This document shows positions 2,978-17,321 of a stretch of 64,000 nt of DNA, one piece after another. The DNA lies in NCBI GenBank assembly GCA_017412045.1, contig JAFQOX010000017.1:6183-70182 (forward strand), read 5' to 3'. The notes under the pieces were generated by a model, which saw only the letters and a list, made by a program, of their open reading frames with translations, had not been told where the DNA came from and did no database searches. Positions within the stretch are counted from its first letter, which is position 1, and the number at the start of each line of letters is the position of its first letter. Position numbers and translations under genes: made by a program. Origin of the DNA: Clostridia bacterium (GTDB lineage: Bacteria > Bacillota > Clostridia > Oscillospirales > CAG-272).

Positions 2978-3010
2978 TTTCGTGAATGAATGTGATAAAG
3001 GAGTGTGTAA

Positions 3011-3575
3011 GATGTCGCCATTGTGTTTGGTGTTGATTGATGACGAATATGACAGGATCAATTTTAAGAAAATATACGAGCGGTATGCGGATGATGTGTT
3101 TAAGCGGATATATAAATTGGTAAACAACCGTCAGGATGCAGAGGATATTATGCAGGAGACATGGCTTGCCGTTGCCGAAAATATACAATTTTACCGTTCC
3201 AAGGACGACGCATCTATGCGGGCGTATATATTGAGGATCGCAAAAAACAGAGCGATTACCTTTTATCATACGAGCGAGAAGGAAAAAAGCCGTCGGTGTG
3301 ACACCGAGCTGATGGATTTGGCTGAAAGCAGTGATGACGAAACGCTTCTTTTTGATATGTGTAACAAAATGGACGTCGCCGTGATTTGTGAATGTATCCG
3401 TTCTCTTGATGAAATTTACAGCGACGTTTTGAATTATTATTATTTACACGATCATACCGTAAAAGAAATTGCAAAATTATTCAAATTGAAGGAAGTGACC
3501 GTGAGGGCGAGATTGGCACGCGGCCGCAAAAAATTGTTACAATTGCTCGAAGGGAGGAATCTGAATGAACGATAA
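3011..3575 (+). CDS. Sigma-70 family RNA polymerase sigma factor, ECF-like (regions 2 and 4 only)
   Basis: Region 2: RQDAEDIMQETWLAVAENIQFY...YILRIAKNRAITFYH. Region 4 HTH: YYLHDHTVKEIAKLFKLKEVTVRARLARGRKKL. AAAGGAG RBS lies 7 nt before ATG 3011. The track ORF starts at GTG 2982. Confidence 0.85.
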
Positions 3576-4065
3576 AGAATTATCGGGAAAAAGCCGCTTG
3601 AAGGAAGCTCTGCAATTCAGCGATCAAGCGTACGTTGACAAGCATCCGCCGATGGAGACCGATGTCCGATATTCAAAAAAGCATTTGAAATATATGGCGC
3701 GCCTGACGAGGCAAACGGTATCTCCTATTGGAATTTACGCAAGAAAATACGTTGCGGCGCTGATGGCGGCAGTATTTCTTCTCGTTTGCGGTTCCGTCAC
3801 GATATCCGCAGTCAGAGCGCCTTTAACCGAATTTTTGGAAACGGTTTCTTCCTCCATTTTTAAGGATCCGAATCCCTCTCAATCCGATGATCCGCATACA
3901 GAGCACGATTTTTCCGTTTTGGCAACGGATGATCCCAACAAGCATTATTACCGCTGTGCAGATGAGCGTTGCAAAGAAAGATCGAAAGAGGAATTTCATA
4001 CTTACGTTCCCAATGAAGAAAAACGGCGGTTGGAGTGTTCGGTTTGCGGCAGAGTCGCCAATTGA
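3565..4065 (+). CDS. Putative anti-sigma factor: single-pass membrane protein with a Cys/His-rich C-terminal ectodomain
   Basis: Overlaps the sigma gene by 11 nt (translational coupling). Has one TM (YVAALMAAVFLLVCGSVTISAV). The C-terminus reads KHYYRCADERCKERSKEEFHTYVPNEEKRRLECSVCGRV. The call rests on position and topology only. Confidence 0.55.
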   Translation: MNDKELSGKSRLKEALQFSDQAYVDKHPPMETDVRYSKKHLKYMARLTRQTVSPIGIYARKYVAALMAAVFLLVCGSVTISAVRAPLTEFLETVSSSIFKDPNPSQSDDPHTEHDFSVLATDDPNKHYYRCADERCKERSKEEFHTYVPNEEKRRLECSVCGRVAN

Positions 4066-4087: not shown

Positions 4088-5635
4088 ATGATGAAAAAAA
4101 TCATCGCCGGCATTCTTACAATCATGATGATGCTGTCTTTTACTGCGTGCAACACGGATCCTATTTCCGAAGATCCCATGACGTATGATACCCAAGACAA
4201 AACGAGCCGTACGGAAGCCTCCGCTTCCACAGACAGAAGCCCGTCAACAACCAATCCGTCCGCGCAACCGATTTGGGAAAAGCCTGTCGCGCCGAGCGGG
4301 TGGGAATATCCCGAAATTGATCTTTCCGAGGGCAAATATACGCCGTCGGCGCTCGATCCCGCTGCGCTTGCAAGGAAGCTCGGCTATAAGGACGGAACTT
4401 ATGAATACGAATATTTCCGCGCGCTTTCGGGTCTCTCCTTTTACGCGCGGATCGCAAGCAACAAGGTTTCTTCCGCAACGAAAAATACTGCGGTCAGTTC
4501 TCTTGCAAAGGGATTTTTTGAAGTGATCAGCCGTGATACCTTCCTTGCTCCTTATGAAGATATTCTTTATCATACGTTTTCTCTTTTAAAGAAGTCGGAC
4601 TTTACGCTTTTTGCCGATAACGAAGCGCTGATTGCAGAGTATCAAAATACGCTTTCCTATCAATGGGATAAGCCCACGGAAATTTGGTATACGGCGGCAC
4701 TTTCGTTCACGGATATGGATACGAAGCTGACGGAATACGCGCTTGCGCTGCTAACGCTAAAAGAAAAATATCCCGATTACGCGGGTGAATTCACACTTTC
4801 CGAGGAAGCGATCTCCCAAGCGCAGGCAATCGTTGATTCCTGTAAGGCCGTTGCCGACAGCCGAGATGAGCAATGGGCAGCATGGGAGGAATATTTCAAG
4901 GAATCGACTCCAAAGGTGACGGTAACGTCGGAGATCATTCCCGAAAAAGATGCTGTGAAGCTTATTTTTACGAGCGACCACCCGCTTTCCGTTCAGATCG
5001 ACCCGAAATATATCGCGGATTTCAAGGGCGAGGTGACGCAAAACGGAAACGCTGTCGGTTATCACTATGAACCGATGGAATCTCCCGTCGTTTGCTACGT
5101 TCCGATCGGTCTTTTTTATTCCACGCACGGGGAATTTTCGGTGACGAAATATGTAACCAATGATTTGACGCACACTTATAAAGAAACGGTCACGGCTTCT
5201 GCCGATTTCCATTCGTGCTTTTCCGATGAAGCGATTACGGTTTCCGATCCGTTTTTGGATGCCGTTTTAAAGGCAGAATTCGGCGGCTCCTACAACGAGA
5301 GAGCGCTTTCACGAATCAGAAGCATTTCGGTTTCCTATCGACGAACAGATCGGGAAAACGTGGGCGGAGCGGCATTCAAAAAAGAGCCCTCCGTTCTGAT
5401 CACATATTACGACAAAACGCTCGGCGACGGCGGATCCTCCTATCATACGTATTCCGATTATTATACGGTGGGTTGGACGGGGGACTTTCCCCCGTGCGTC
5501 TGGGAGGATATGGAATATTTTCCGCTTCTGGAAAGCGTTTCGTTCCACCAAGACGGCTCATCCAAAATTCCGCTTCCCGAGGAATATCTCGACCGTATTC
5601 TCATAAAGGAATATACGGCTGACGATTTTTCATGA
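4088..5635 (+). CDS. Lipoprotein of unknown function (~515 aa)
   Basis: MMKKIIAGILTIMMMLSFTAC is a signal peptide plus lipobox (LSFTAC), followed by a Ser/Thr/Pro/Asp-rich linker. GGAGAAG RBS precedes ATG 4088. The track ORF 3887.. overlaps the anti-sigma gene, so the later start is preferred. Confidence 0.7.
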   Translation: MMKKIIAGILTIMMMLSFTACNTDPISEDPMTYDTQDKTSRTEASASTDRSPSTTNPSAQPIWEKPVAPSGWEYPEIDLSEGKYTPSALDPAALARKLGYKDGTYEYEYFRALSGLSFYARIASNKVSSATKNTAVSSLAKGFFEVISRDTFLAPYEDILYHTFSLLKKSDFTLFADNEALIAEYQNTLSYQWDKPTEIWYTAALSFTDMDTKLTEYALALLTLKEKYPDYAGEFTLSEEAISQAQAIVDSCKAVADSRDEQWAAWEEYFKESTPKVTVTSEIIPEKDAVKLIFTSDHPLSVQIDPKYIADFKGEVTQNGNAVGYHYEPMESPVVCYVPIGLFYSTHGEFSVTKYVTNDLTHTYKETVTASADFHSCFSDEAITVSDPFLDAVLKAEFGGSYNERALSRIRSISVSYRRTDRENVGGAAFKKEPSVLITYYDKTLGDGGSSYHTYSDYYTVGWTGDFPPCVWEDMEYFPLLESVSFHQDGSSKIPLPEEYLDRILIKEYTADDFS

Positions 5636-5653
5636 TCCCGCTGAGAGGTGCTT

Positions 5654-6151
5654 ATGAAAAAACTTCTTATCTTGTTTTGTCTTTTTTCCATACTTCTTTG
5701 TTCGTGCGGCAAGGCGGACGAGGTTCTCGACCTCTCCGCCTTTCATGAAAATTTCCGCACGGAGCACGGTGCGCTTTTTGATAACGCAAGCTGTGAACAC
5801 GATCTGCGGTATCGGAATATGCCCGATCCGCTTTCGGATGACGACGTGACCGTTTATCATGAGGTTTCATGCTATTACGGCAATTGCGATTTTGAAACGC
5901 ATTTGGAACCGCATACGGTCTCTTATTCAAACATTCAAGTTCAAAACGGAAATCCCAAATTGAAAGAAAACGGCTGTCTGTATCACCGTTTGGTCGTTCA
6001 ATGCGAATATTGCCGCGTTTATCCGTATTTTTATATCTACGTTTTATGCCCGAACCAAGATACTGCTTGTAAGGGCGGAAAAGAGTGCCTTGCCGGTGCG
6101 GATTGGGAGGAGATCTTATGCGATACGCCTTACGTAATATCGTACGATTAA
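5654..6151 (+). CDS. Cys/His-rich small lipoprotein, copy 1
   Basis: MKKLLILFCLFSILLCSCG is a signal peptide plus lipobox. The mature part has >=12 Cys. It is a paralog of 9459..9977, with shared blocks CEH.L.Y, YH..SC..G.CD.E.H.EPH, KENG.LYH, C.EC, DW.EI...TPY.I. Confidence 0.7.
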   Translation: MKKLLILFCLFSILLCSCGKADEVLDLSAFHENFRTEHGALFDNASCEHDLRYRNMPDPLSDDDVTVYHEVSCYYGNCDFETHLEPHTVSYSNIQVQNGNPKLKENGCLYHRLVVQCEYCRVYPYFYIYVLCPNQDTACKGGKECLAGADWEEILCDTPYVISYD

Positions 6152-7593
6152 AAACGCGGAGCTTTCTGAGCTTTGCCATCGCGTTTGCCATTCTTTTTCT
6201 TTCCATGCTCGGCGTTTTGACCGTTCGGCTCTGCGAGGATAACCGAGAACGCTTTTTCGGTCCGCTCGACGGCGCCTATCACGTAACGGACAGTGCCTAT
6301 ACGCCCTTCCTTTCCTATGAGGCGGCGGAATATCTGGAGAAATATTCCGAAGCGATCACGAAGACCTCCGCCGTGATGGAGCGGACGGTTTCTTTTCCCG
6401 ATATGGAGTATATCGGGAAAAACGATTATGCGAGAGAAACCTTCGGCTGGGAAAGGGCTTACCTTCCCATTGGAACGGCACAAACGGCGTATCACGAGGG
6501 CTTTCTTCTTTGCGCGGTGACCTCTATGGATATTTTGAAGGAGGTCTACGGCGGTGATCTCGTCATGACGGAAGGCACGGCGATCAGTGAAAAAAACAAC
6601 GCCGACGGTGCAAACAAGATCGTGATTTCCTTCTCGGTCGCAGAGAAAAACGGATTGAAGCTTGGAGACCGCGTGCATCTCGATCCGTTTTCCGTTTTCA
6701 GTGAAGAAGAAGGCGCAGTTTCCGCTTACCTTGGATTCTCCGAAGAGTATTCGGCGTATGAATACATCGTCGGCGGTATTTATGAAAACCGTGAGAATAA
6801 CGGAGTTTCCGCTTCGCTTCCGAGTGAGATCAATGAAAATAAGGTTTATATCCCCATCTCGACTCTGACGGAAATGGCGAGAGATCCCTATCTTCTTGAT
6901 TTTGGCATTCGTAACGAAACGGGGCTTTCCGAGGAACCGCCGTCCGTGATTCCCGACAGACTCTATTTTCAGGTAAACAATACGGGAAGCGTAAAAATTT
7001 TAGAGAAAAAAATAAATGAGATCGGTTTTTCGGAGGCGCTTCTGCTTTCGCCCTATATATCCGATGCGGCTTCTTCACCATCCGCAAGACTTTCCGAGAT
7101 CGTTTCCTTGCTTCTTGTCGGTGTGATCGGAATGGGCTTTGCCGTTTTTGCGCTTACGGTGTTTTTTAATATGAAAGCAAGGAACAGAGAGCTTGCCGTG
7201 CTGACGGCACTCGGACAAAAGCGAAGCTGTGTCGTTCTCTCGTTTTTTGCTGAAATCTGTATTCTGACCTTTTTAGCCTTCCTGTGCGGTATTTTTCTTT
7301 TGATGGGAGCGGTCGTGCTTTTGGCTGTTCCGATCTCAAATTACTTGTATGAAGCTGAATTTTCGGCAAAGATTACGCATGAAAGCGCGGATCTCTTTTT
7401 GATCGGAAGCGGAGCGCAATCTGCCGCAACTGAAAAATTGGAGGATTTCGATTTTCTTTTTACTCGATATATCATACCGAGCACCGCGCTTTCCGCATTG
7501 GCGGCGGTCTTGATCCTGCTTCTTATTTTCGGTATCGTAGCTTTTTATGTCCGTAAGATCAACGCATTGTCGGGAGTGGGAGGAAAAGAATGA
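6118..7593 (+). CDS. ABC transporter permease, MacB/FtsX type, 4 TM with large extracytoplasmic domain, copy 1
   Basis: MRYALRNIVRLKTRSFLSFAIAFAILFL (typical FtsX-family N-terminus plus TM1), ~300 aa ectodomain, then TM2-loop-TM3-loop-TM4 (IVSLLLVGVIGMGFAVFALTVFFNMKARNRELAVLTALG...ALAAVLILLLIFGIVAFYV). Overlaps both the upstream and downstream genes. Confidence 0.85.
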   Translation: MRYALRNIVRLKTRSFLSFAIAFAILFLSMLGVLTVRLCEDNRERFFGPLDGAYHVTDSAYTPFLSYEAAEYLEKYSEAITKTSAVMERTVSFPDMEYIGKNDYARETFGWERAYLPIGTAQTAYHEGFLLCAVTSMDILKEVYGGDLVMTEGTAISEKNNADGANKIVISFSVAEKNGLKLGDRVHLDPFSVFSEEEGAVSAYLGFSEEYSAYEYIVGGIYENRENNGVSASLPSEINENKVYIPISTLTEMARDPYLLDFGIRNETGLSEEPPSVIPDRLYFQVNNTGSVKILEKKINEIGFSEALLLSPYISDAASSPSARLSEIVSLLLVGVIGMGFAVFALTVFFNMKARNRELAVLTALGQKRSCVVLSFFAEICILTFLAFLCGIFLLMGAVVLLAVPISNYLYEAEFSAKITHESADLFLIGSGAQSAATEKLEDFDFLFTRYIIPSTALSALAAVLILLLIFGIVAFYVRKINALSGVGGKE

Positions 7594-9350
7594 CGGTTTT
7601 AAAATTTGCTTTTCGGAATTTGATTCGCCTGCCTTGGCGAACTCTTTTATATTTTGCCATCGTATTTTTCATCGTCCTATCCGTCTCGGCTTCTCTTTTC
7701 GTATACGTTGCGTGTGAAAACGCGGGAGAGGCGCTGGATGAAAATTATGTGTTCGTTGCTTCGCTCGTTCCGAGGAAAAAGGATTCCCTCGCCCTTCGGG
7801 ATATCGGATACTGCGCAGACGGAACGGAAATTCTTTCTTTTCACGTGTCCATGTCGGAAAATAACGGCGTGATTCTCGGCGGCGCGTATATGCAAAGGCT
7901 TCCCGAAAAAACGGAGATCGCAAACGCGCCTTCGGCATGGGTGGACGAAATCGGCGCAAGGCTCGTTGCCGTGGAAAATCTGCATCTCGTCCCCTCCTTC
8001 TTTTCGGGAGAATGTACGTTGCAAAGCGGCACGGGTATTACCGAAAAAGGCTATGCGGGCGAACGTGCCGAGCTTGTGATCCCGTGGCGGCTTGCAGAGA
8101 AATACGGTGTTTCCGTCGGTGATACGCTCATCAGACGGTATTACCGCGACGACTACGAAACGTATATTTATTTGGAAAGCGAGATCGTCGGTATTTATAA
8201 AACGAGCGCGATTTCGCCCGATGAAAACGATGATCCCGTATATATTCCTCTTGCCGTTGCGGAATTGGATTATGCCACGCTCATTTCGGAGCGGCAAACG
8301 CCAACCTCCGAGCTGATCATCGAACGCGCGGATTTCGTTTTGAAGGATAGAAACGCATTTGAACCGCTCGTTTTGCAGGCTGGGGCAAACGGACTGGATT
8401 TCCGTAGAGCCGATCTCGTATTCAATAACGGCGCTTACGATACGCTTTCGGGCGAGCTTCGGAGCATTACGTCGATTGCTATGCTCGTTCTGTTCGGTGT
8501 TTTGGCTGTCGGTGTAAGCGTTCTCGTCTTTTTTACGCTCTATCTCTGCCATGCAAGAGACCGCGAAAAAACGTTGCTTTCTGCACTCGGGATGAGCCGC
8601 GGAGGCATCCGCGCCATGCTCACCCTTGAATTGCTCACAGTTGCTGTTTGTGCTTTTCTGATCGGAGGTGTGGCAGGTTATTTTACGGCAGATGCCGTTT
8701 GCGGCTACGTGAACGATTCGGTATTGACCGATGAAGAAATTTCAAGCAAAATCGAAGGCACGGGGCGCGGAAGTCAAACGGATATCACGGCACCCCTTGA
8801 GCAAAACATCAAAATAGAGATTTCCGTGCGCTCCGTTCACGTTTGTGCATCCGGACTCACGGTCAACGAAACGAAAATGCCGAGAGAGGACGAAATCGGT
8901 GTCAGCAGGCATTTGTATTATCGCATCGGCAACGATCTGACGGATATGATGCAGGGAAAGGCTCGCGTGCCGACCTCGGTCGTGGGCATTACGGATATGA
9001 GCGCCGTCAAAACGACCGTTTGGGACGAGTCCTTTTCCGGTATCCGTGTTTTTGTCAGCGAGGATTTTAATATGGGAGCAATGGAGAGTAACCGTATTTT
9101 TCTGACACCTTACGATCAAAACGGGTACGTATCGCTCAAAAAGGATTCTTCTTCGCTCGGCGATGCAAGCTTGCCGAAAAATACGTCTGTGCGAATCGTG
9201 GGAGTCTATGAAGAAAACGAATATTGCTCGGGAAACGATCTGCTCGTCTGCATGGAGGATTATCACAGGCTTTATTCCGAATTTTCCATCACGGACGAAA
9301 GCTTTTTCTTTGAGCGCATCGGCACGGTTTATACAAAAAATGAGCCGTAA
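7590..9350 (+). CDS. FtsX-family permease-like protein, atypical: TM1, ectodomain, TM2, TM3, then ~215 aa hydrophilic C-terminal domain and no TM4, copy 1
   Basis: MTVLKFAFRNLIRLPWRTLLYFAIVFFIVLSV..., FtsX core ITSIAMLVLFGVLAVGVSVLVFFTLYLCHARDREKTLLSALGMSRGGIRAMLTLELLTVAVCAFLIGGVAGYF. No further hydrophobic span is present up to the C-terminus (...VGVYEENEYCSGNDLLVCMEDYHRLYSEF...). ATGA overlap with the upstream gene. Confidence 0.75.
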   Translation: MTVLKFAFRNLIRLPWRTLLYFAIVFFIVLSVSASLFVYVACENAGEALDENYVFVASLVPRKKDSLALRDIGYCADGTEILSFHVSMSENNGVILGGAYMQRLPEKTEIANAPSAWVDEIGARLVAVENLHLVPSFFSGECTLQSGTGITEKGYAGERAELVIPWRLAEKYGVSVGDTLIRRYYRDDYETYIYLESEIVGIYKTSAISPDENDDPVYIPLAVAELDYATLISERQTPTSELIIERADFVLKDRNAFEPLVLQAGANGLDFRRADLVFNNGAYDTLSGELRSITSIAMLVLFGVLAVGVSVLVFFTLYLCHARDREKTLLSALGMSRGGIRAMLTLELLTVAVCAFLIGGVAGYFTADAVCGYVNDSVLTDEEISSKIEGTGRGSQTDITAPLEQNIKIEISVRSVHVCASGLTVNETKMPREDEIGVSRHLYYRIGNDLTDMMQGKARVPTSVVGITDMSAVKTTVWDESFSGIRVFVSEDFNMGAMESNRIFLTPYDQNGYVSLKKDSSSLGDASLPKNTSVRIVGVYEENEYCSGNDLLVCMEDYHRLYSEFSITDESFFFERIGTVYTKNEP

Positions 9351-9382: not shown

Positions 9383-9411
9383 TTGACAAGAGCGCCCTCG
9401 GCACTTATAAT
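9383..9411 (+). promoter_or_regulatory. Consensus sigma-A type promoter (TTGACA-17 nt-TATAAT) between the two cassette copies
   Basis: tctTTGACAagagcgccctcggcactTATAATataac, read directly from the only sizeable intergenic gap of the locus (9351-9458). Confidence 0.6.
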
Positions 9412-9458: not shown

Positions 9459-9977
9459 ATGAAAAGATATATTCTGCTTTGCTTGCTTGCGTTTTGCGTT
9501 TTGCTGTTTTCCTCTTGTCACGCGGTTTCCGAAACGCATTTGGATCCATCCCATTACGGTGAGGATTTCAGAATCAAAAACGAAATGCTTTTTCCGAACA
9601 CGGAATGTGAGCATTCCTTGGTTTATACGCCGACGGACGGTACGGAGGCGGATATGTATCACAAGACCTCCTGCAAATGGGGCGGATGTGATTACGAGGC
9701 GCACGGAGAACCGCACGTATTTCTGTTTAAGCAGGGGTATTTGCCGAGCGCGAGAGCGCATTATAAGGAAAACGGATATCTGTATCATTCCTTCCGGATG
9801 GCTTGCGAGGAATGTCACGGAGCGGTCACGCTCCACGTTCTTTGCCGTACGCAGAATGCCGAATGCGGCGCGGGCGAAGGGGCGATCCACGCGCCTGCCG
9901 TATGCTTTGCAGGCTGTGATTGGCAAGAAATCTTTCGGGGAACGCCGTATCGGATCACGGTGCGCTCCGATGCGTGA
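9459..9977 (+). CDS. Cys/His-rich small lipoprotein, copy 2
   Basis: MKRYILLCLLAFCVLLFSSC is a signal peptide plus lipobox. Paralog of 5654..6151. AAGGAG RBS is present. Confidence 0.7.
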   Translation: MKRYILLCLLAFCVLLFSSCHAVSETHLDPSHYGEDFRIKNEMLFPNTECEHSLVYTPTDGTEADMYHKTSCKWGGCDYEAHGEPHVFLFKQGYLPSARAHYKENGYLYHSFRMACEECHGAVTLHVLCRTQNAECGAGEGAIHAPAVCFAGCDWQEIFRGTPYRITVRSDA

Positions 9978-9994: not shown

Positions 9995-11467
9995 TTGTAT
10001 TACGCGATTCGAAATATAGGCAGACAGAAGGCAAAAAGCCTTCTTGTTCTTCTGATGGCGTTTGCCGTCCTGTTTCTTTCTCAATTCGGATTTTTTATGC
10101 GCTGTATATCCGAACACGTGAGAGAACGCTTTTGGGGACCGCTTGACGGCTCCGTTCACGTGACGGATGACGATCTTGAGGCGTATCTTACCTACGATGC
10201 CGCCGTTACGCTTGCGAACGATGCGGAGGTGATCACCCGTCTCTCTGCCGTGAAAACCTATACGGGCTTTTTCCGTAACGCCGTTTACGTGGGCTACGGT
10301 AGCTATCAGCGTCCGCAATATGCGGGAGAAACACCGACCGCGGACAGAAAAAGCAATTATCTTACGGGTGTTTGCGTGAAAGCCGTGACCTCCATGGAGA
10401 TTCTTGAGGAGACGTACGGCGGTGTTCTGGCGGTGGTGCAAGGCTCGGCGATCACCGACGAAGACACGGATCTGCGGAAAAACAAGATCGTTGTCTCGGA
10501 AAAATTCGCTGAAGCCAACAACCTGCGGATTGGAGATTCTCTCGTATTGGATACCTTGTCCCTTTATCAGACAGAGGCGGAAGCGGTACGCTTCGGTATG
10601 ACGGATCTGTATGACAAAAATAAATTTACGTATGCATATACCGTGGGCGGTATCTACCGTTTGCATACGGACAATGCGGCGGCAGCTTCTGTTCCGTGGG
10701 AATTGTATGACAATATCGTTTACGTGCCAATGACGACGGCGGAGAATATCTCCGTTTCCGAAGGCGTACGGACGATGTTTGAGAGCGAGGATGTTTTCGC
10801 CTTGAGGACCAATCCCGTTTTGGTTCCCGATGCGCTGTATTTTCATCTTTCGGATATCGGCTGTGCGCAAGCGCTTGCCGAAGAAATGAACGGAATCGGT
10901 TTTTCCGAGCGAATCAGGCTGACGCCGTACGTTTCCGATCTTTCGTCCTCTCCTTCTGCGCGGCTTTCGGAGGTCGTATCGGGGACGCTTGTCGGTGTGA
11001 TCGCGGCGGGTTTTGCCGTATTGCTGTTGACCGCGCTTTTGAATATGAGGGCAAGACGGCGCGAATTTGCCGCCCTGATCGCCATGGGTAAAAAAAGAGA
11101 GTCCGTTGCTTTGTCCTACGCTCTTGAGCTTGGGCTTCTGATCGTCTCGGCGTTTCTTTTGTCCGCCGTAGCGATGACGGTCATCGCCTATCTGTGCGCG
11201 GCACCACTCTCCCGGTATTTGTACGCCGCAGAGGAAGCGGCTTTGTTTCACACCGAAAGCGCGGATCACTATCTTTTTGGCGATTGGAGCGATCCGCTTG
11301 CCGTGCAGGTGCAAGCGTCCATTCCCGCGCTTTTCCGTGAATATATGATGCCGAACATCGTATTTACGGGAGCGGTGACGGCAGTTTTGATGCTGTTGCT
11401 TTGCGGTATGATTTCAGTCTATGTAAAAAACGTACACCCAATGTACGATGCGGGGGGGAAGGAGTAA
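9995..11467 (+). CDS. ABC transporter permease, MacB/FtsX type, 4 TM, copy 2
   Basis: Paralog of 6118..7593 (WGPLDGSVHVTDDD / FGPLDGAYHVTDSA; SPSARLSEVVS / SPSARLSEIVS; NMRARRREFAALIAMG). A TTG start at ~9995 (LYYAIRNIGRQKAK) preceded by GGAAGG aligns with the copy 1 N-terminus. The track ORF begins at 9920 inside the upstream gene. Confidence 0.8.
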   Translation: MYYAIRNIGRQKAKSLLVLLMAFAVLFLSQFGFFMRCISEHVRERFWGPLDGSVHVTDDDLEAYLTYDAAVTLANDAEVITRLSAVKTYTGFFRNAVYVGYGSYQRPQYAGETPTADRKSNYLTGVCVKAVTSMEILEETYGGVLAVVQGSAITDEDTDLRKNKIVVSEKFAEANNLRIGDSLVLDTLSLYQTEAEAVRFGMTDLYDKNKFTYAYTVGGIYRLHTDNAAAASVPWELYDNIVYVPMTTAENISVSEGVRTMFESEDVFALRTNPVLVPDALYFHLSDIGCAQALAEEMNGIGFSERIRLTPYVSDLSSSPSARLSEVVSGTLVGVIAAGFAVLLLTALLNMRARRREFAALIAMGKKRESVALSYALELGLLIVSAFLLSAVAMTVIAYLCAAPLSRYLYAAEEAALFHTESADHYLFGDWSDPLAVQVQASIPALFREYMMPNIVFTGAVTAVLMLLLCGMISVYVKNVHPMYDAGGKE

Positions 11468-11468
11468 T

Positions 11469-13256
11469 ATGACGGTCATCAGAATGGCTTTTCGGAATCT
11501 CGTCCGTTTTCCGAAAAGAACGGTTTTATACGGACTTACGGTTTTTCTTCTCGTCTTTTCCATCACCGTCTCTCTTTTCGTATACCGTGCGTGCGGTCTG
11601 GCGGAAAGCACGCTGGAGGAGCATTATGTTTTCGTCGCTTCTCTGGTCAAAAGAACACAAGGACGCAATATTCCGCTTTCTGAGATCTTCAAATGCACGC
11701 CTTATAAAAAATTGTTGGCATTCAACGTCACCGTTTCGGAGGGAGAGGGCGTATTTCCCGCAGGCTCTGCGCTGACGGAGCTTCCTTCTGCCGATAGGGA
11801 CGAAAATCCGACGGACGTTTGGCTTGAAGGACCGGGCTGTCCCATATACGGCGTAGAAAATCTGGGGCTCGTTTATCCGTTTTTCTCGGGAGAATGTCAT
11901 ATCACGCAGGGAACGGCGCTGACGGAAAAGGGATACTGCGGCGAAGCCGACGAGACGGTGATCCCCTGGTGGATGGCGGAGCGCTACGGACTCAAGGTCG
12001 GCGATACCGTGAACCGCCGTTATCTCCGACAGACGGGAGAATTTGCCTATATTTATATCCCGACGGAGATCGTGGGTATTTATGCGACGTCCTCTCCCTC
12101 GCCGAATATTGAAAATTATCCTGCGTATATTCCGCTTGCCCTGGCGGAGACGGACTACGGCAAAATCTTGCCGAGCGCAACGGATGCCGGGGATATCCGC
12201 GTGGAAAGAGCCGATTTCGTGCTGAAAAACAGGGAGGATTTTGCGGATTTCGTCGCGTTCGCGCAAGCGCAGGGCTTGGATTTCACGTCTGCCAATCTTG
12301 TTTTCAATAACAGCACCTATGACGTGCTGTGCGCCGAGCTTCAAAATATCGGTCATATTGCGCTCCTCGTATTTGCCGCCGCTACTCTCGCAGGTGTCGG
12401 CACGCTGATTTTTCTGACGGTCTATCTTTGCAGAGCGAGAGAAAAAGAAACGGCGATTCTTCGCGCTCTGGGAATGAAAAAAACGAAGATCTACGCTTTG
12501 CGTGCGTTGGAATTTGCTTTGCTCATCGCCGTTTTTTCTTCGGTAGGATTTTTGGGAGGTCGTTTTGCGGCAGGGGCGGTTTGCGATTTCGTCAACGGTA
12601 CGGTTCTGGCGCGTGCCTCCGCATCCGAGGAAATACAAGATCTGAATGCATCGGAAAGTTTTGTCATTACCATGCCGCTCGAAAAAGATTTCAACATGAA
12701 AATATCCCTTTCTCCGTCTCAAATTGCCGATGCCGCCGTTGCGGTGCATTCGTTGCCGAAGCTTTCCGTAAACGAGCTTGGGATCTCGCGCCATCCATTT
12801 TACTTGTTTATGACGGACTCGGAGAATCTGACCGCTACGCCCGAAGCGATGAAGGCGTTTGAAACGAGGGAAAAGCTCCGGATGGATATCGTCGGCGTAA
12901 CGGATCTTTCCGTTTTTGAACTGACGGAAACGAAGGAATTTCCCGAAAATTTCGTCAGGATCTACGTGAATGAAACTTCTCCGTATGCCAATGAAGAGAG
13001 CCTGTTTTTGTCGGCGGACGATTTCGGAGATTACGTTTCGGTTCTTCTGTATGAAGCGGGGATCTCGCCGGACGGAGGCAGATTGGGACAAGTGAAAAGA
13101 TATTATATTGCCGGTACTTATCAGGAAAATGAATATTGCTCGGGCGATGACATCCTTGTTTCCATGGAGGACTATCATAAAATATATTCCGATATATCCG
13201 TCACGGATCACATCAATCATTTTCAGCGCATCGGCGCAGTTTGGGAAAAGGAGTGA
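11469..13256 (+). CDS. FtsX-family permease-like protein, atypical (3 TM plus C-terminal ectodomain), copy 2
   Basis: MTVIRMAFRNLVRFPKRTVLYGLTVFLLVF... Paralog of 7590..9350 with the same architecture and the conserved C-terminal block GTYQENEYCSGDDILVSMEDYHKIYS. The start follows the upstream stop by 1 nt. Confidence 0.75.
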   Translation: MTVIRMAFRNLVRFPKRTVLYGLTVFLLVFSITVSLFVYRACGLAESTLEEHYVFVASLVKRTQGRNIPLSEIFKCTPYKKLLAFNVTVSEGEGVFPAGSALTELPSADRDENPTDVWLEGPGCPIYGVENLGLVYPFFSGECHITQGTALTEKGYCGEADETVIPWWMAERYGLKVGDTVNRRYLRQTGEFAYIYIPTEIVGIYATSSPSPNIENYPAYIPLALAETDYGKILPSATDAGDIRVERADFVLKNREDFADFVAFAQAQGLDFTSANLVFNNSTYDVLCAELQNIGHIALLVFAAATLAGVGTLIFLTVYLCRAREKETAILRALGMKKTKIYALRALEFALLIAVFSSVGFLGGRFAAGAVCDFVNGTVLARASASEEIQDLNASESFVITMPLEKDFNMKISLSPSQIADAAVAVHSLPKLSVNELGISRHPFYLFMTDSENLTATPEAMKAFETREKLRMDIVGVTDLSVFELTETKEFPENFVRIYVNETSPYANEESLFLSADDFGDYVSVLLYEAGISPDGGRLGQVKRYYIAGTYQENEYCSGDDILVSMEDYHKIYSDISVTDHINHFQRIGAVWEKE

Positions 13257-13260
13257 AGAT

Positions 13261-13944
13261 ATGGAAACTTTGCATTTGAAAAACGTATCCTACGATTATA
13301 CGACCAAAGCGGGAAAGGTCCACGCTTTGAGGGATGCGACCGCCGTCTTTGAAGCGGGCGCGGTTTACGCGATCGTCGGACGCTCGGGAAGCGGAAAGTC
13401 CACCTTGATGTCCCTCATGGCAGGGCTGGACATCCCCAAAGACGGTGATATTTTTTATCACGGCGAAAATTTGAGAAATATGGATCGCGATAAGTTCCGC
13501 CGCGAGCATATCGGCATGATCTTCCAGAGCTATTACTTGCTCCCCCAGCTGACCGCCGTGGAAAACGTGGAGCTTTCGCTCGAGCTTGCAAAATACAAGG
13601 GAAACAAGCGTGCCCGCGCCGAGGAAATGCTCTCGCTCGTCGGCATCAAAAGGGAGCAATTCAAAAAGCGCAGTACGCAGTTTTCGGGCGGCGAACAGCA
13701 AAGGATCGCCATCGCCCGCGCCATTGCGGCAGATCCCGAGATCATTCTCGCGGATGAACCGACGGGAAACTTGGATAACGATAACAGCATGAACATCGTC
13801 GGGATTCTCGTCGATCTGGCGCATAAATACGATAAATGCGTGATTGTCATTACCCACGCCGCCGAGATTGCGGAAAGAGCAGACGTCGCGCTGAAGATGG
13901 ACGACGGCGTGCTGAAATGTGATTTCGGGAAAGAAATGGTGTAA
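13261..13944 (+). CDS. ABC transporter ATP-binding protein, MacB/LolD-like (227 aa)
   Basis: Walker A GRSGSGKST, Q-loop, signature FSGGEQQRIAIARA, Walker B ILADEPTGNLD, H-loop VIVITHA. It is the only ATPase in the locus. Confidence 0.9.
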   Translation: METLHLKNVSYDYTTKAGKVHALRDATAVFEAGAVYAIVGRSGSGKSTLMSLMAGLDIPKDGDIFYHGENLRNMDRDKFRREHIGMIFQSYYLLPQLTAVENVELSLELAKYKGNKRARAEEMLSLVGIKREQFKKRSTQFSGGEQQRIAIARAIAADPEIILADEPTGNLDNDNSMNIVGILVDLAHKYDKCVIVITHAAEIAERADVALKMDDGVLKCDFGKEMV

Positions 13945-14023
13945 ATGATTGCAAGTCTATTGATTCTCTTTTATGTTTCCGATATAATAAAATTGTATTC
14001 GTAAGACCCACTGTAGGGCACAA

Positions 14024-14054
14024 GTCGGGAAGATTTTCCCGGCTTTTCTTTTTT
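14024..14054 (+). terminator. Rho-independent terminator closing the ABC locus
   Basis: GTCGGGA-agattt-TCCCGGC hairpin followed by TTTTCTTTTTT. Confidence 0.6.
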
Positions 14055-15242: not shown

Positions 15243-15581
15243 ATAGCATTCCTCCTAAAAATAAAAATCAATCATCTTTTTCGTTTTGCGGATTTTTGAG
15301 AAAATCAAACGTGATTCTTCGAAATTGTTGAGTCCAAAAGCGATTTAATGAAAATATTATACAGCGAAAATGTGTGATTTGTCAATAGGATTTTCAAAAA
15401 AACAGAAAAAAATCTCTAAAAATAAACATGAAATATTCATCAAAAAACAATGAATCCTTTTCACGCGTTTTGTTGACAAGTAAAAAGGAAAATGCTATAA
15501 TAATAAAGTATCGAATTGTAATATCATCGGTAAAATATAATATGATCGAAACGGATATAGGACAGAAAGGAACAATGGATT

Positions 15582-17321
15582 ATGACGAAACGAATTCCCA
15601 AAATATCGCTCCGTGCGATGTCGCTTGCCAAGCAATGCGGAATCAGCAGTAAAGATTTGTATTTAATTACGCCGACAGGCGCTGACGGCAGAATCACCGA
15701 AGAGGACGTTTTGCTCGCAGCCAAGGCGAAAATGGATATGGCTTCCGTGGCAGCGCAAAAGCCCGCAGCGGAAAAAGCACCCGTTGCGGAAGAAGTACCT
15801 GTAACGGAAAAAGCGCCCGTTGCAGAAAAAGCACCCGTTGCGGAAGAAGTACCTGTAACGGAAAAAGCGCCCGTTGCAGAAAAAGCACCCGTTGCGGAAG
15901 AAGCGCCCGTGGCGAAAGAAGCGCCCGTGGCAGAAAAAGCACCCGTAGCGGGAGAAGCGCCCGTTGCGGAAGAAGCACCCGTTGCAGAAAAAGCGCCCGT
16001 TGCGGAAGAAGCGCCCGTTGCGGAAGAAGCGCCCGTTGCAGAAAACGCACCCGTAACGGAAGAAGCGCCCGTAGCGGAAGAAGCGTCCGCAGCAGAAGAA
16101 GCGCCCGTAACGGAAGAAGCACCCGTTGCGGAAGAAGTACCCGTTGCAGAAGAAGCGCCCGTAACGGAAGAAGCACCCGTTGCGGAAGAAGTACCCGTTG
16201 CAGAAGAAGCGCCCGTTGCAGAAGAAGCGCCCGTTGCGGAAGAAGTGCCCGTAACGAAAGAAGCGCCCGTTGCGGAAGAAGCGCCCGTTACGGAAGAAGC
16301 ACCCGTAACGGAAGAAGCACCCGTTGCGGAAGAAGTACCCGTTGCAGAAGAAGCACCCGTTGCAGAAGAAGCGCCCGTAGCGGAAGAAGCACCCGTAGCG
16401 GAAGAAGCACCTGTGGCAGAAGAAACTCCCGTAGCGGAAGAAGCCCCCGTGACGGAAGAAGCACCTGTGACAGAAGAAACTCCCGTGGAAGCGCCGGACA
16501 GCGTTGCCATTGAAAAAATCGAGACGGAAAAACAGGAACAAACCGCAATCATTGCCAAACCCGTGATGAACGAAGAAACGATCGGCGATCAGAGCGCAGA
16601 AGGAGAGATCCCGAAGCATGAGACGGTTCATTCCTTTGATTCGGAGGCATACCTTCATACGGACGTCATCATTCCGAGAACGGAAACCGCGCCGGACGGA
16701 ACGCCGATGACGGTCAGTATGTCCTTCGATGCTTCTTCTATCGTGAGATTACATACGATGATCAAGGAGAACGGCGAAGCGATGGGAATTCCTCACGTTA
16801 CGATCAACGATATGATTCTCTTTGCGGCGGCAAAGCTTCTGAAGAAAAACAAAGCGCTGAACGCGCATTTTCTCGGAGACAAGATCCGTTATTTCGACGG
16901 CGTGCATCTCGGATTCGCCGTAGATACCGATCACGGTATGGAGCTTCCCGTGGTATTCGATGCGGATAAGCTTTCCCTCTACGCGCTCACGCAGGTTACG
17001 GATGCTTTGATCAGAGGCGCAAGAGCGGGCAAAATCGCTTCCGGCAAAACGAAGCCCTGCGCTTCCTTCACGGTATCCAATCTCGGCACGCTCGGCGTGG
17101 AATATTTCATGCCGACGCTGAAGGCACCGCAGACCGGAATCCTCGGCGTTTGCGCGTTGCAGAAGAGAGTGAAGGAGGTTGGCGGAAAGGACGTATTCTA
17201 CTCCTGCATCCCGCTCTCCCTGACCTTCGATCCCCGCGCGCTGGATACCACGAGCGCCGCGAAATTCCTGCGCGATCTTTGCGTATCGCTGGAAAATTTT
17301 GAATTGTTGCTGTTGAAATAA
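15582..17321 (+). CDS. 2-oxoacid dehydrogenase E2 (dihydrolipoamide acyltransferase)-like protein with no lipoyl domain, a long Pro/Ala/Glu repeat linker and a degenerate catalytic motif
   Basis: N-terminal E3/E1-binding-like segment ([29 protein letters not shown]), ~240 aa of [AV]PV[AT]E[EK] repeats, and a C-terminal catalytic-domain pattern ([39 protein letters not shown]). Confidence 0.75.
15760..16490 (+). repeat. About 40 tandem copies of an 18-bp coding repeat (GAAGAAGCNCCCGTTGCG-like, hexapeptide APVAEE) with 54-bp higher-order units
   Basis: Read directly. For example, the 54-mer gaagaagtacctgtaacggaaaaagcgcccgttgcagaaaaagcacccgttgcg occurs twice back to back near 15788-15895. Confidence 0.9.

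Follow-up and report, generated by a model that had tools for sequence, protein, structure and literature searches.

Cys/His-rich lipoproteins of uncultured gut Clostridia, predicted to bind zinc and encoded beside MacB-type permeases

The window, i.e., the whole 64,000-nucleotide stretch of DNA that was analyzed, carries an operon in which two small lipoprotein genes each precede a pair of permease genes, all on the + strand. The operon head encodes an ECF-type sigma factor (2982..3575; Pfam Sigma70_r2 and r4_2), in an arrangement like that of loci L004 and L006, followed by a putative anti-sigma factor (3565..4065) and a large companion lipoprotein of 515 aa with no known domain in Pfam or NCBIfam (4088..5635). 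The C-terminal ~200 aa of this companion are conserved among type-1 modules. Lipoprotein copy 1 (type 1, 165 aa, 5654..6151) is supported by its open reading frame, an SD with ATG, family alignments, and an AlphaFold model, and copy 2 (type 2, 172 aa, 9459..9977) by its open reading frame, SD, family alignment, and BLASTP match to copy 1. The two copies share 37% identity over their full length (E 8e-34), far beyond chance. The SD of copy 1, GAGAGG, is separated by 5 nt from ATG 5654; an alternative GTG at 5648 falls within this SD, and orthologs start with MKK. The SD of copy 2, AAGGAG, lies 5 nt upstream of its start.

Both reading frames were found as the earlier note had described them, together with the lipoboxes LLCSC (LCS-C18, copy 1) and LFSSC (FSS-C, copy 2). 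Among the 54 members of the family alignment, Cys at +1 and S/A/G at -1 occurred in 54/54 and L/F at -3 in 45/54, and the n-region of the signal peptide is MKK/MKR (KK type). From signal peptide and lipobox, both copies are predicted to be Sec-exported, lipid-anchored ectodomains with mature lengths of ~147 aa (copy 1) and ~152 aa (copy 2). Tat export of the family was rejected, as an RR-like n-region occurred in only 2/54 members.

The overlap of ~34 nt that had been claimed between copy 1 and the following permease gene is exact: permease A1 starts at ATG 6118, and the lipoprotein stop codon occupies 6149-6151. The SD of permease A1, GGGAGGAG (6105-6112), sits within the D-W-E-E codons of the lipoprotein, and SD and start codon both lie within the last 15 codons of copy 1. 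The same 34-nt overlap recurs in at least seven other loci, and the placement of the SD within the lipoprotein gene is conserved with it. The co-translation proposed earlier holds in so far as the permease SD and start lie inside the lipoprotein gene, but the arrangement is better termed translational coupling. Copy 2 has no 34-nt overlap with the start of permease A2, which is probably either TTG 9995 (17-nt gap) or GTG 9974 (GTGA overlap). The idea that the lipoprotein motif TPYxI is conserved only because a permease start overlaps it was dismissed, since type-2 members keep TPYxI without any overlap.

Permease A1 (6118..7593; Pfam, sequence, hydropathy) contains MacB_PCD and FtsX domains and four hydrophobic segments. 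The FtsX-like permease B1 (7590..9350; Pfam, hydropathy, homologs) overlaps the end of A1 with its start (ATGA) and has only three hydrophobic segments, beyond which the C-terminal ~215 aa are hydrophilic. Its Pfam FtsX match spans only model positions 2-73 of 120, and nearly all of 76 permease-B homologs measure 575-612 aa; TM4 was apparently lost from subunit B, and a second ectodomain acquired. The 108-nt gap upstream of copy 2 holds a promoter-like site that matches the sigma-70 consensus at 12/12 positions (9383..9411, TTGACA-17-TATAAT). Permease A2 (9995..11467 from the TTG start; Pfam, hydropathy) again combines MacB_PCD and FtsX with 4 TM, and B2 (11469..13256; Pfam, hydropathy) is FtsX-like with 3 TM and a hydrophilic C-terminal region. 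The only ABC ATPase gene of the operon (13261..13944; Pfam ABC_tran, 3.5e-34) presumably serves both permease pairs, and its product is closest to LolD (3e-44), MacB, YbbA, and YtrE among PDB sequences. The operon probably ends at a hairpin 3' of the ATPase gene (14022..14045) that resembles a terminator in its 10-bp stem and T-run.

Judged by the Pfam domains MacB_PCD and FtsX and by the likeness of its ATPase, the system would be a type VII ABC system. Such systems, of the MacB/FtsX/LolCDE type, operate by moving extracytoplasmic partners. The permeases are very distant from all solved relatives, and the lone PDB sequence match of permease A was the pneumococcal MacB-like permease 5xu1_M (E 0.022). 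No permease matched the NCBIfam LolC/LolE models; the sole hit, ADOP (E ~1e-3), fell far short of its cut-off. An HlyD/MacA-type membrane fusion protein was found neither in the window operon (Pfam) nor among the called genes of related loci, and the modules held no enzyme, adaptor, or substrate gene that would reveal the task of the machine.

The lipoproteins constitute a family that is undescribed and of narrow distribution. When 1.84 billion representatives were searched exhaustively with an HMM, only 55 proteins were returned (50%-identity clusters, E <= 1e-3), nearly all of them lipoproteins of 130-190 aa, and every member whose source is recorded derives from uncultured Clostridia of the gut. 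The family alignment comprised 54 sequences, while a 10-sequence alignment was used for the locus scan, which gave 10 loci. One candidate of 2421 aa with five weak matches (P0060) was discarded as a repetitive, Cys-rich surface protein with a spurious low-complexity match. No Pfam family, zinc-finger models included, was matched at E <= 0.1; the lone NCBIfam match lay in the signal-peptide region and far under its cut-off, and a profile search of PDB sequences gave no significant match, the best (calreticulin, E 0.73) being noise. The CDGSC motif of distant members prompted a comparison with CDGSH/mitoNEET-type Fe-S domains, which was abandoned for want of a Pfam zf-CDGSH match and a spacing that agrees with CxCx2(S/T)x3PxCDG(S/A/T)H; the Sec-type signal peptides likewise argue against an exported folded Fe-S protein. 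A full-text literature search found no description of the family or its module.

AlphaFold gave a confident model of copy 1 (pLDDT 87.9) from the 54-sequence alignment, and a pLDDT of 56.5 from 10 sequences only. Foldseek found no structure at E <= 1e-3 in the PDB (best E 0.48, query TM-score <= 0.19) or among the predicted viral folds of BFVD (best E 0.2). The earlier statement that the family cannot be assigned still holds: no known domain was revealed by searching Pfam, NCBIfam, and PDB sequences or by Foldseek. In the model of copy 1, CxH, Cx4C, and Cx2C form short knuckles at the ends of beta-hairpins, and the ectodomain would be a small, mostly beta fold held by three tetrahedral metal sites, most likely of Zn.

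Twelve ligand positions are proposed in copy 1 (C47, H49, H69, C73, C78, H87, H111, C117, C120, C132, C139, and C145), and all 12 are present in copy 2. Across the family these columns are invariant or nearly so against a mean column identity of 25%: H69, H87, C117, and C120 occur in 54/54 members, H49, C73, C78, H111, C132, C139, and C145 are conserved in at least 90% of the 54 sequences, and position 47 is Cys or His in 47/54. The Cys/His motifs quoted in the earlier note are thus real and persist in homologs. An exception concerns the last quoted region, in which C156 is R/K/N/Q in type-2 members and does not belong to the core. Losses occur in groups. Five members (P0038, 39, 45, 47, and 49) jointly lack C47, H49, and C73, and C78 is missing too in four of them, P0045 being the one that retains it. 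H111, C132, C139, and C145 are absent all together from P0059, which, like P0054, is possibly just a truncated gene. From such co-loss patterns in a few sequences we infer three metal sites, A {47,49,73,78}, B {69,87,117,120}, and C {111,132,139,145}, so that each lipoprotein is predicted probably to bind three zinc ions.

Whether the conserved residues form a disulfide knot or bind metal had been left undecided between the two, and the metal alternative is now favored. Conserved ligand sets, a tolerated Cys/His swap, and loss in threes or fours are the sequence pattern of structural Zn(Cys/His)4 sites, while a disulfide-rich domain would be expected to keep an even number of strictly conserved Cys that never become His. 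A metal-free, disulfide-knotted ectodomain in which the His serve another role would accord with the eight conserved Cys of the mature protein, an even number, and with an extracytoplasmic location, where disulfides are frequent in many bacteria. It is nonetheless clearly unlikely, as His replaces Cys47 in six separate 50%-identity clusters (P0019, 22, 25, 27, 29, and 32), mature P0039 has exactly 5 Cys, every one at a site B or C position, Cys and His disappear jointly, and five His are conserved as well as the Cys. The hosts, being gut anaerobes, would also provide a reducing habitat. Among metals, the lack of a twin-arginine signal implies export in the unfolded state, which fits Zn and not Fe-S.

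In all of the ~21 modules examined (two in the window, L001, L004-L006, L008-L016, L018, two in L019, and L020-L022), the lipoprotein gene lies directly 5' of a homolog of the 4-TM MacB-like permease A. The 3-TM FtsX-like permease B follows wherever the contig continues, usually together with the gene for a LolD-like ATPase. This linkage extends to the most divergent variants, P0039 without site A and the His47 variant P0025. Lipoprotein, permease A, and permease B diverge in step: over 66 module pairs, lipoprotein identity correlated with that of permease A at r 0.88 and of permease B at r 0.86, and the two permeases correlated with each other at r 0.92. Between the two modules of the window, identities were 41, 40, and 43% for lipoprotein, permease A, and permease B, respectively. 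A functional link between the lipoproteins and MacB-type permeases, as suggested earlier, is strongly supported by this adjacency and co-divergence in the gene data, while the choice among substrate, sensor, and partner is still a matter of interpretation. Linkage and in-step divergence are also expected from plain operon co-inheritance and do not amount to proof of a physical complex.

By their sequence relationships, the window copies represent two old subtypes that have come to share an operon and its one ATPase gene. Recent tandem duplication was rejected, as either copy resembles single-module loci elsewhere more than it resembles its neighbor; both subtypes also occur singly in other genomes, and the nearest relatives of copy 2 are the type-2 lipoproteins of L013-L015. 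At least six diverged modules were found in MAG RGIG3846. The upstream regulators vary among loci and are an ECF sigma factor, an HTH_3 protein, or none.

Taken as a whole, the best reading, to which we assign a probability of roughly 0.55, is that of a zinc-stabilized lipoprotein that serves a type VII ABC machine, often under ECF control, as its accessory subunit. The data show that the proteins form a family, how its ligands are conserved, that the genes are linked, and that they diverge in step; metal identity, site assignment, formation of a physical complex, mechanotransmission, and a physiological task are inferred beyond this. Each lipoprotein would be the dedicated extracytoplasmic working partner of its own permease pair, consisting of a 4-TM MacB-like subunit A and a 3-TM FtsX-like subunit B, presumably energized by the LolD/MacB-type ATPase. 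Translational coupling would supply the lipoprotein in fixed proportion to permease A, and a short tether would hold it at the membrane surface beside the permease ectodomains. Driven by ATP, the ectodomains would move and thereby act on or through the lipoprotein and its larger companion, by mechanotransmission of the kind found in other type VII ABC systems. The frequent control by ECF sigma and anti-sigma factors points to a task in cell-envelope stress or detoxification.

That the lipoprotein is merely co-located with the permeases, sharing transcription but no function, is highly improbable: the adjacency has no exception in the ~21 modules, whose identities fall as low as about 25-30%, the out-of-frame overlap has been retained, and lipoprotein and permease families are restricted to matching distributions, the permease-B family being equally small with 76 matches. 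A more serious competitor, although an improbable one, treats the lipoprotein as cargo that the A/B/ATPase complex would extract from the membrane in LolCDE fashion and release or relocate, e.g., to the wall or medium. Two unlike, FtsX/MacB-type permease genes with one LolD-like ATPase gene (E 3e-44) reproduce the composition of LolCDE, extracytoplasmic lipoproteins are associated with both systems, and the large and small lipoprotein genes both lie 5' of the permeases. LolCDE extrudes triacylated lipoproteins (PMC8333309). The permeases described here, however, miss the LolC/LolE models and are very remote from solved relatives, and subunit B has 3, not 4, hydrophobic segments plus the extra C-terminal region. 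Moreover, Lol substrates are recognized via lipid and linker, and their genes are not paired singly with that of a transporter, whereas the lipoproteins here are strictly cognate and translationally coupled. The hosts are labeled Clostridia or Eubacteriales MAGs, and Clostridia normally lack an outer membrane; these organisms are uncultured MAGs, and a monoderm envelope is suggested for them only by the "Clostridia" labels.

An immunity or ligand-capture protein, which would capture a toxic peptide or small molecule at the membrane surface and pass it to the ABC exporter as LanI does with LanFEG, is a comparably doubtful alternative. It would suit the many loci under ECF sigma/anti-sigma control, and several diverged modules per genome would provide a range of specificities. 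MacB-family pumps are known to confer resistance to antibiotics and peptides (PMC5985334). Against it, the annotated called genes beside the modules include no bacteriocin or lantibiotic genes, and the most conserved residues are structural ligands. LanI proteins (SpaI, NisI) resemble the present family in being small lipoproteins that are encoded beside an ABC exporter and work with it on the external side of the membrane, but no LanI-type relative was detected by sequence or fold among solved proteins. LanFEG is of the ABC-2 type, not the FtsX type, and LanI proteins are not known to be Cys/His-rich.

The accessory-subunit reading has a functional parallel in FtsEX, in which an ABC complex of the FtsX type works mechanically on an extracytoplasmic protein dedicated to it (PMC7668044, PMC10694151). 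With FtsEX and its partners (EnvC, PcsB, CwlO, and RipC), the proposed machine would share mechanical work on a partner and no solute transport across the membrane. It differs in that the partner is a 165-aa Cys/His lipoprotein without coiled coil, hydrolase, or LytM domain (Pfam), two genes encode the heteromeric permease, and the module has no cell-wall hydrolase gene. Subunit A has the MacB_PCD plus FtsX architecture of MacAB and Spr0693-0695, but two lipoproteins and a second, atypical permease take part here, and no HlyD/MacA-type gene does. Zinc ribbons, treble clefs, and cross-braced fingers likewise have short knuckles and Cys/His quartets that are conserved while the rest varies, yet the lipoprotein matched no zinc finger in Pfam or Foldseek, and its extracytoplasmic, lipid-anchored position is unusual for bacterial Cys/His zinc modules.

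Few partner types of type VII systems are known, namely MacA, EnvC/PcsB/RipC, and lipoprotein cargo. If the accessory-subunit reading is true, a zinc-knotted lipoprotein without detectable relative in sequence or fold, bound to an atypical permease pair, would be a new one. Cys/His zinc modules on the outer face of the membrane are rare in bacteria, and in strict anaerobes they could double as oxidant or metal switches. The Clostridia that carry the system are abundant in the gut, although uncultured, and have several modules per genome, so that its substrate could matter for envelope defense there. The site assignment predicts three Zn per molecule and names the ligand quartets.

The putative anti-sigma factor was identified from hydropathy, an 11-sequence alignment, and a weak profile match to the lipoprotein family. 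A single TM segment (residues ~60-88) precedes its extracytoplasmic tail (nt 3895-4047), which carries eight Cys/His that are invariant in the 11 sequences: H111, H114, H127, C131, C136, H145, C158, and C161. The tail aligned with the lipoprotein family at an hhalign probability of 36-43% and scored 13.4 bits against the family HMM, a score reached by 19/2000 composition-preserving shuffles of the tail. Given these weak scores, homology between tail and lipoprotein was not accepted as an established result and is kept as a lead.

A new-fold, extracytoplasmic multi-zinc module used in three ways in one regulon, as lipoprotein subunit of an atypical, 7-TM heteromeric type VII ABC machine, as outward-facing anti-sigma tail, and in the type-2 companions, is a speculative extension that we consider rather unlikely; the eight invariant ligands of the tail follow the pattern of site A plus site B. 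If it were true, the tail might read the same signal as the lipoprotein, the candidates being a ligand, the availability of zinc, and an attack on Zn-thiolates by oxidants or electrophiles, or it might mimic the lipoprotein at the transporter. By mimicry, the sigma factor would be informed of the state in which the ABC machine is working, much as BceAB-BceS senses flux, but in an ECF system.

The family HMM gave no match in the type-2 companion proteins. A similar block, YHxxxC..C..H..CxxC, is present in these proteins.

One long gene array on the + strand of the window stretches from a sigma factor gene to a single ABC ATPase gene. It opens with an ECF-type sigma factor (2982-3575; Pfam Sigma70 r2/r4), a one-TM protein in the anti-sigma position (3565-4065) and a 515-aa lipoprotein (4088-5635), followed by small lipoprotein copy 1 (5654-6151), permease A1 (6118-7593) and permease B1 (7590-9350), and then by copy 2 (9459-9977), permease A2 (~9995-11467) and permease B2 (11469-13256). 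The ATPase gene (13261-13944; Pfam ABC_tran) comes last, with a terminator-like hairpin downstream at 14022-14045. Both A permeases match Pfam MacB_PCD plus FtsX, and both B permeases match FtsX. The earlier note's two related lipoprotein genes are correct in substance and in their coordinates: both have good RBSs and lipoboxes (LLCS-C and LFSS-C), and the copies align over their full length with 37% identity (E 8e-34). Between permease B1 and copy 2, a gap of 108 nt contains a sigma-70 consensus-like site (TTGACA-17-TATAAT, 9383-9411; 12/12 matches to consensus), so transcription of the second module, judged by this site, may not depend on the ECF sigma factor. Further downstream, a 579-aa ORF (15582-17321, +) has an acyltransferase-looking C-terminus preceded by ~280 residues of imperfect PVAEEA-type repeats; the repeats produce long spurious opposite-strand ORFs (15524-16658).

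The lipoprotein family is real and undescribed. Neither copy matched Pfam at E <= 0.1, copy 1 gave only a signal-peptide-level NCBIfam match far under the cut-off, and the best match of a profile search against PDB sequences had an E of 0.73. Among 5.8 billion proteins, a word-indexed search found 9 relatives, each of them unnamed or "hypothetical". When 1.84 billion cluster representatives were searched exhaustively with an HMMER profile, just 55 proteins reached E <= 1e-3, and lipoproteins of 130-190 aa make up nearly all of these. The one large match, a repetitive Cys-rich surface protein (P0060), was discounted as a family member. Scanning one genome per species located 10 loci, all in MAGs of uncultured Clostridia or Eubacteriales from the guts of goats, roe deer, water deer and humans. 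AlphaFold with 10 sequences gave no confident model (pLDDT 56.5), while the model from 54 sequences was confident and mostly beta (pLDDT 87.9, pTM 0.69). Foldseek found no relative of it in PDB, where the top match had an E of 0.48 and a query TM-score <= 0.19, or in BFVD, where the top E was 0.2; the predicted fold would thus be new only relative to solved structures. With Pfam, NCBIfam, PDB-sequence and Foldseek searches all lacking a match, the earlier statement that the proteins could be assigned to no family is borne out, and the family was not found described in the full-text literature.

The Cys/His pattern proved to be conserved in homologs. In an alignment of 54 family sequences with a mean column identity of only 25%, the lipobox Cys, H69, H87, Y110, C117 and C120 (copy 1 numbering) are invariant, and conservation reaches 90% or more at H49, C73, C78, H111, C132, C139 and C145. 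C156, near the last motif of the earlier note, is not a core position in the per-sequence table. His replaces Cys at position 47 in six separate 50%-identity clusters; C47, H49 and C73 are jointly absent in five members (P0038, P0039, P0045, P0047 and P0049), of which all except P0045 have also lost C78; and P0059, whose gene is possibly truncated, lacks H111, C132, C139 and C145 together. The simplest reading of these patterns would be three four-ligand metal sites, with proposed ligands C/H47, H49, C73 and C78 in site A, H69, H87, C117 and C120 in site B, and H111, C132, C139 and C145 in site C, located at strand ends and turns of the AlphaFold model.

The ectodomain could instead, though less probably, be a metal-free disulfide knot, which the earlier note had offered alongside zinc binding. 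A metal ligand can change between Cys and His, which a disulfide does not allow, and the six clusters with His47 therefore speak against a knot. Mature P0039 contains exactly five Cys (117, 120, 132, 139 and 145), an odd number that cannot be all-disulfide. The metal half of that proposal is thus favored by the His47 variants and grouped losses, and its disulfide half is opposed by P0039. The signal peptides of the family are Sec-type rather than twin-arginine, so a cofactor would have to be picked up outside the cell; this is consistent with zinc and speaks against Fe-S. Taken alone, zinc is a probable reading.

A permA homolog lies directly downstream of the family member in every module examined, with permB next wherever the contig continues. 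These modules comprise the two of the window and those of related loci L001 (same locus as L002, L003 and L007), L004-L006, L008-L016, L018, L019 (two modules) and L020-L022. The linkage also held in loci reached from the most distant homologs of permease B and from the most aberrant lipoproteins, namely P0025 with His47 and P0039 without site A. The permease-B family is similarly small and restricted, with 76 matches, nearly all of 575-612 aa. Over 66 module pairs, lipoprotein identity correlates at r 0.88 with the identity of permease A and at r 0.86 with that of permease B, and the two permeases correlate at r 0.92; between the window modules, the three proteins have identities of 41, 40 and 43%. 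The three genes therefore evolve as a unit, as expected for a complex, yet simple co-inheritance also yields divergence in step. In MAG RGIG3846 (JAFTIJ01), six or more modules are spread over five contigs (L008, L011, L012, L013 and L019), a marked paralogous expansion of the entire cassette.

The 34-nt overlap noted earlier between copy 1 and its permease gene is exact. The permease A1 start (ATG 6118) and its SD (GGGAGGAG, 6105-6112) both lie within the final 15 codons of copy 1, making 6105-6151 dual-coding: the SD falls in the lipoprotein D-W-E-E codons, and the lipoprotein tail LCDTPYVISYD and permease N-terminus MRYALRNIVRL are read in different frames from shared bases. The overlap is kept in L001, L004, L005, L016, L019, L020 and L022. 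Copy 2 is followed by either a 17-nt gap (start TTG 9995) or a GTGA overlap (start GTG 9974).

Two subtypes were distinguished, type 1 with window copy 1 and type 2 with window copy 2, L013-L015 and L018. Type 1 is preceded by a large lipoprotein whose C-terminal domain is conserved, overlaps permA by 34 nt, ends in ...LCDTPYxIxxD and has an anti-sigma factor with a Cys/His tail (window, L004, L006), whereas type 2 follows a 218-346-aa protein with its own Cys/His block, lacks the overlap, keeps TPYxI and has a DUF4367-type anti-sigma factor. Single-module loci elsewhere hold closer relatives of each window copy than its partner in the window, so the window joins two old subtypes before one ATPase gene. 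One ATPase gene per two permease pairs is seen independently in L019, where the ATPase gene (7836-8501) follows the first module and not the second. Most complete modules have the ATPase gene after permB, and L022 lacks it there. In the L001 lineage it consists of two ORFs (~13700-14254 in L001), with the same split in three independent assemblies; this may be a frameshift, pseudogene or assembly error.

The machine itself is atypical. Each A subunit has four hydrophobic segments, and a large ectodomain lies between TM1 and TM2. FtsX/MacB proteins normally have four TM helices, but B subunits (7590-9350, 11469-13256) have only three hydrophobic segments and then ~215 hydrophilic residues, and their FtsX match ends at model position 73 of 120. 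Given the usual N-in topology of FtsX, the hydrophilic region would form a second ectodomain. The sole PDB sequence match of permease A is the MacB-like pneumococcal permease 5xu1_M (E 0.022), and the ATPase is nearest to LolD, MacB, YbbA and YtrE. No HlyD-type adaptor, hydrolase or bacteriocin gene occurs in any module examined.

We favor, at a probability of roughly 55%, a zinc-stabilised lipoprotein that is the cognate partner of a type VII ABC A/B pair. Its short-tethered ectodomain would serve its own A/B pair as accessory subunit or working partner, translational coupling would fix its proportion to that pair, and ATP-driven ectodomain movements would act on it. Such movements are typical of type VII ABC systems (reviewed in PMC5985334 and PMC8333309). 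Less probably, the lipoprotein could be a Lol-like cargo, or a LanI-like capture or immunity protein, the latter reading being opposed by the lack of bacteriocin genes among the annotated genes of the modules; it is least likely to be merely co-located with the permeases. For the zinc-stabilised partner, the three-site prediction is testable; the link to the ABC machine is unusually strict, and the hosts are uncultured.

A Cys/His module of this kind may recur in the anti-sigma factor. Its extracytoplasmic tail in type 1 (window 3895-4047) has eight Cys/His invariant in 11 orthologs (H111, H114, H127, C131, C136, H145, C158 and C161; HxEH...HYYxC-x4-C...H...CxxCG) that align in register with lipoprotein sites A and B, while site C ligands are absent. 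The resemblance is weak, with an hhalign probability of ~40% and 19/2000 shuffles reaching the observed score. If real, one Cys/His module would be common to the sensor and the transporter's partner. A similar block occurs in type-2 companion proteins. Companions of type-2 and distant modules carry blocks of their own (YHxxxC..C..H..CxxCG), sometimes two per protein (L013 3482-4480, L015 5901-6911, L018 204-1244, L019 2572-3968, L022 4791-5645, L021 488-946); the one scanned, from L015, had no Pfam match, and none of the six convincingly matched the lipoprotein HMM (best 12 bits). That the module is often under ECF sigma/anti-sigma control points to a task in envelope stress or detoxification. 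The widely sampled single-module locus L016 (1-4258; P0090, listed by 177 collection blocks) adjoins a type I restriction-modification system, and no sigma factor lies in its vicinity, so regulation of the module is not uniform.
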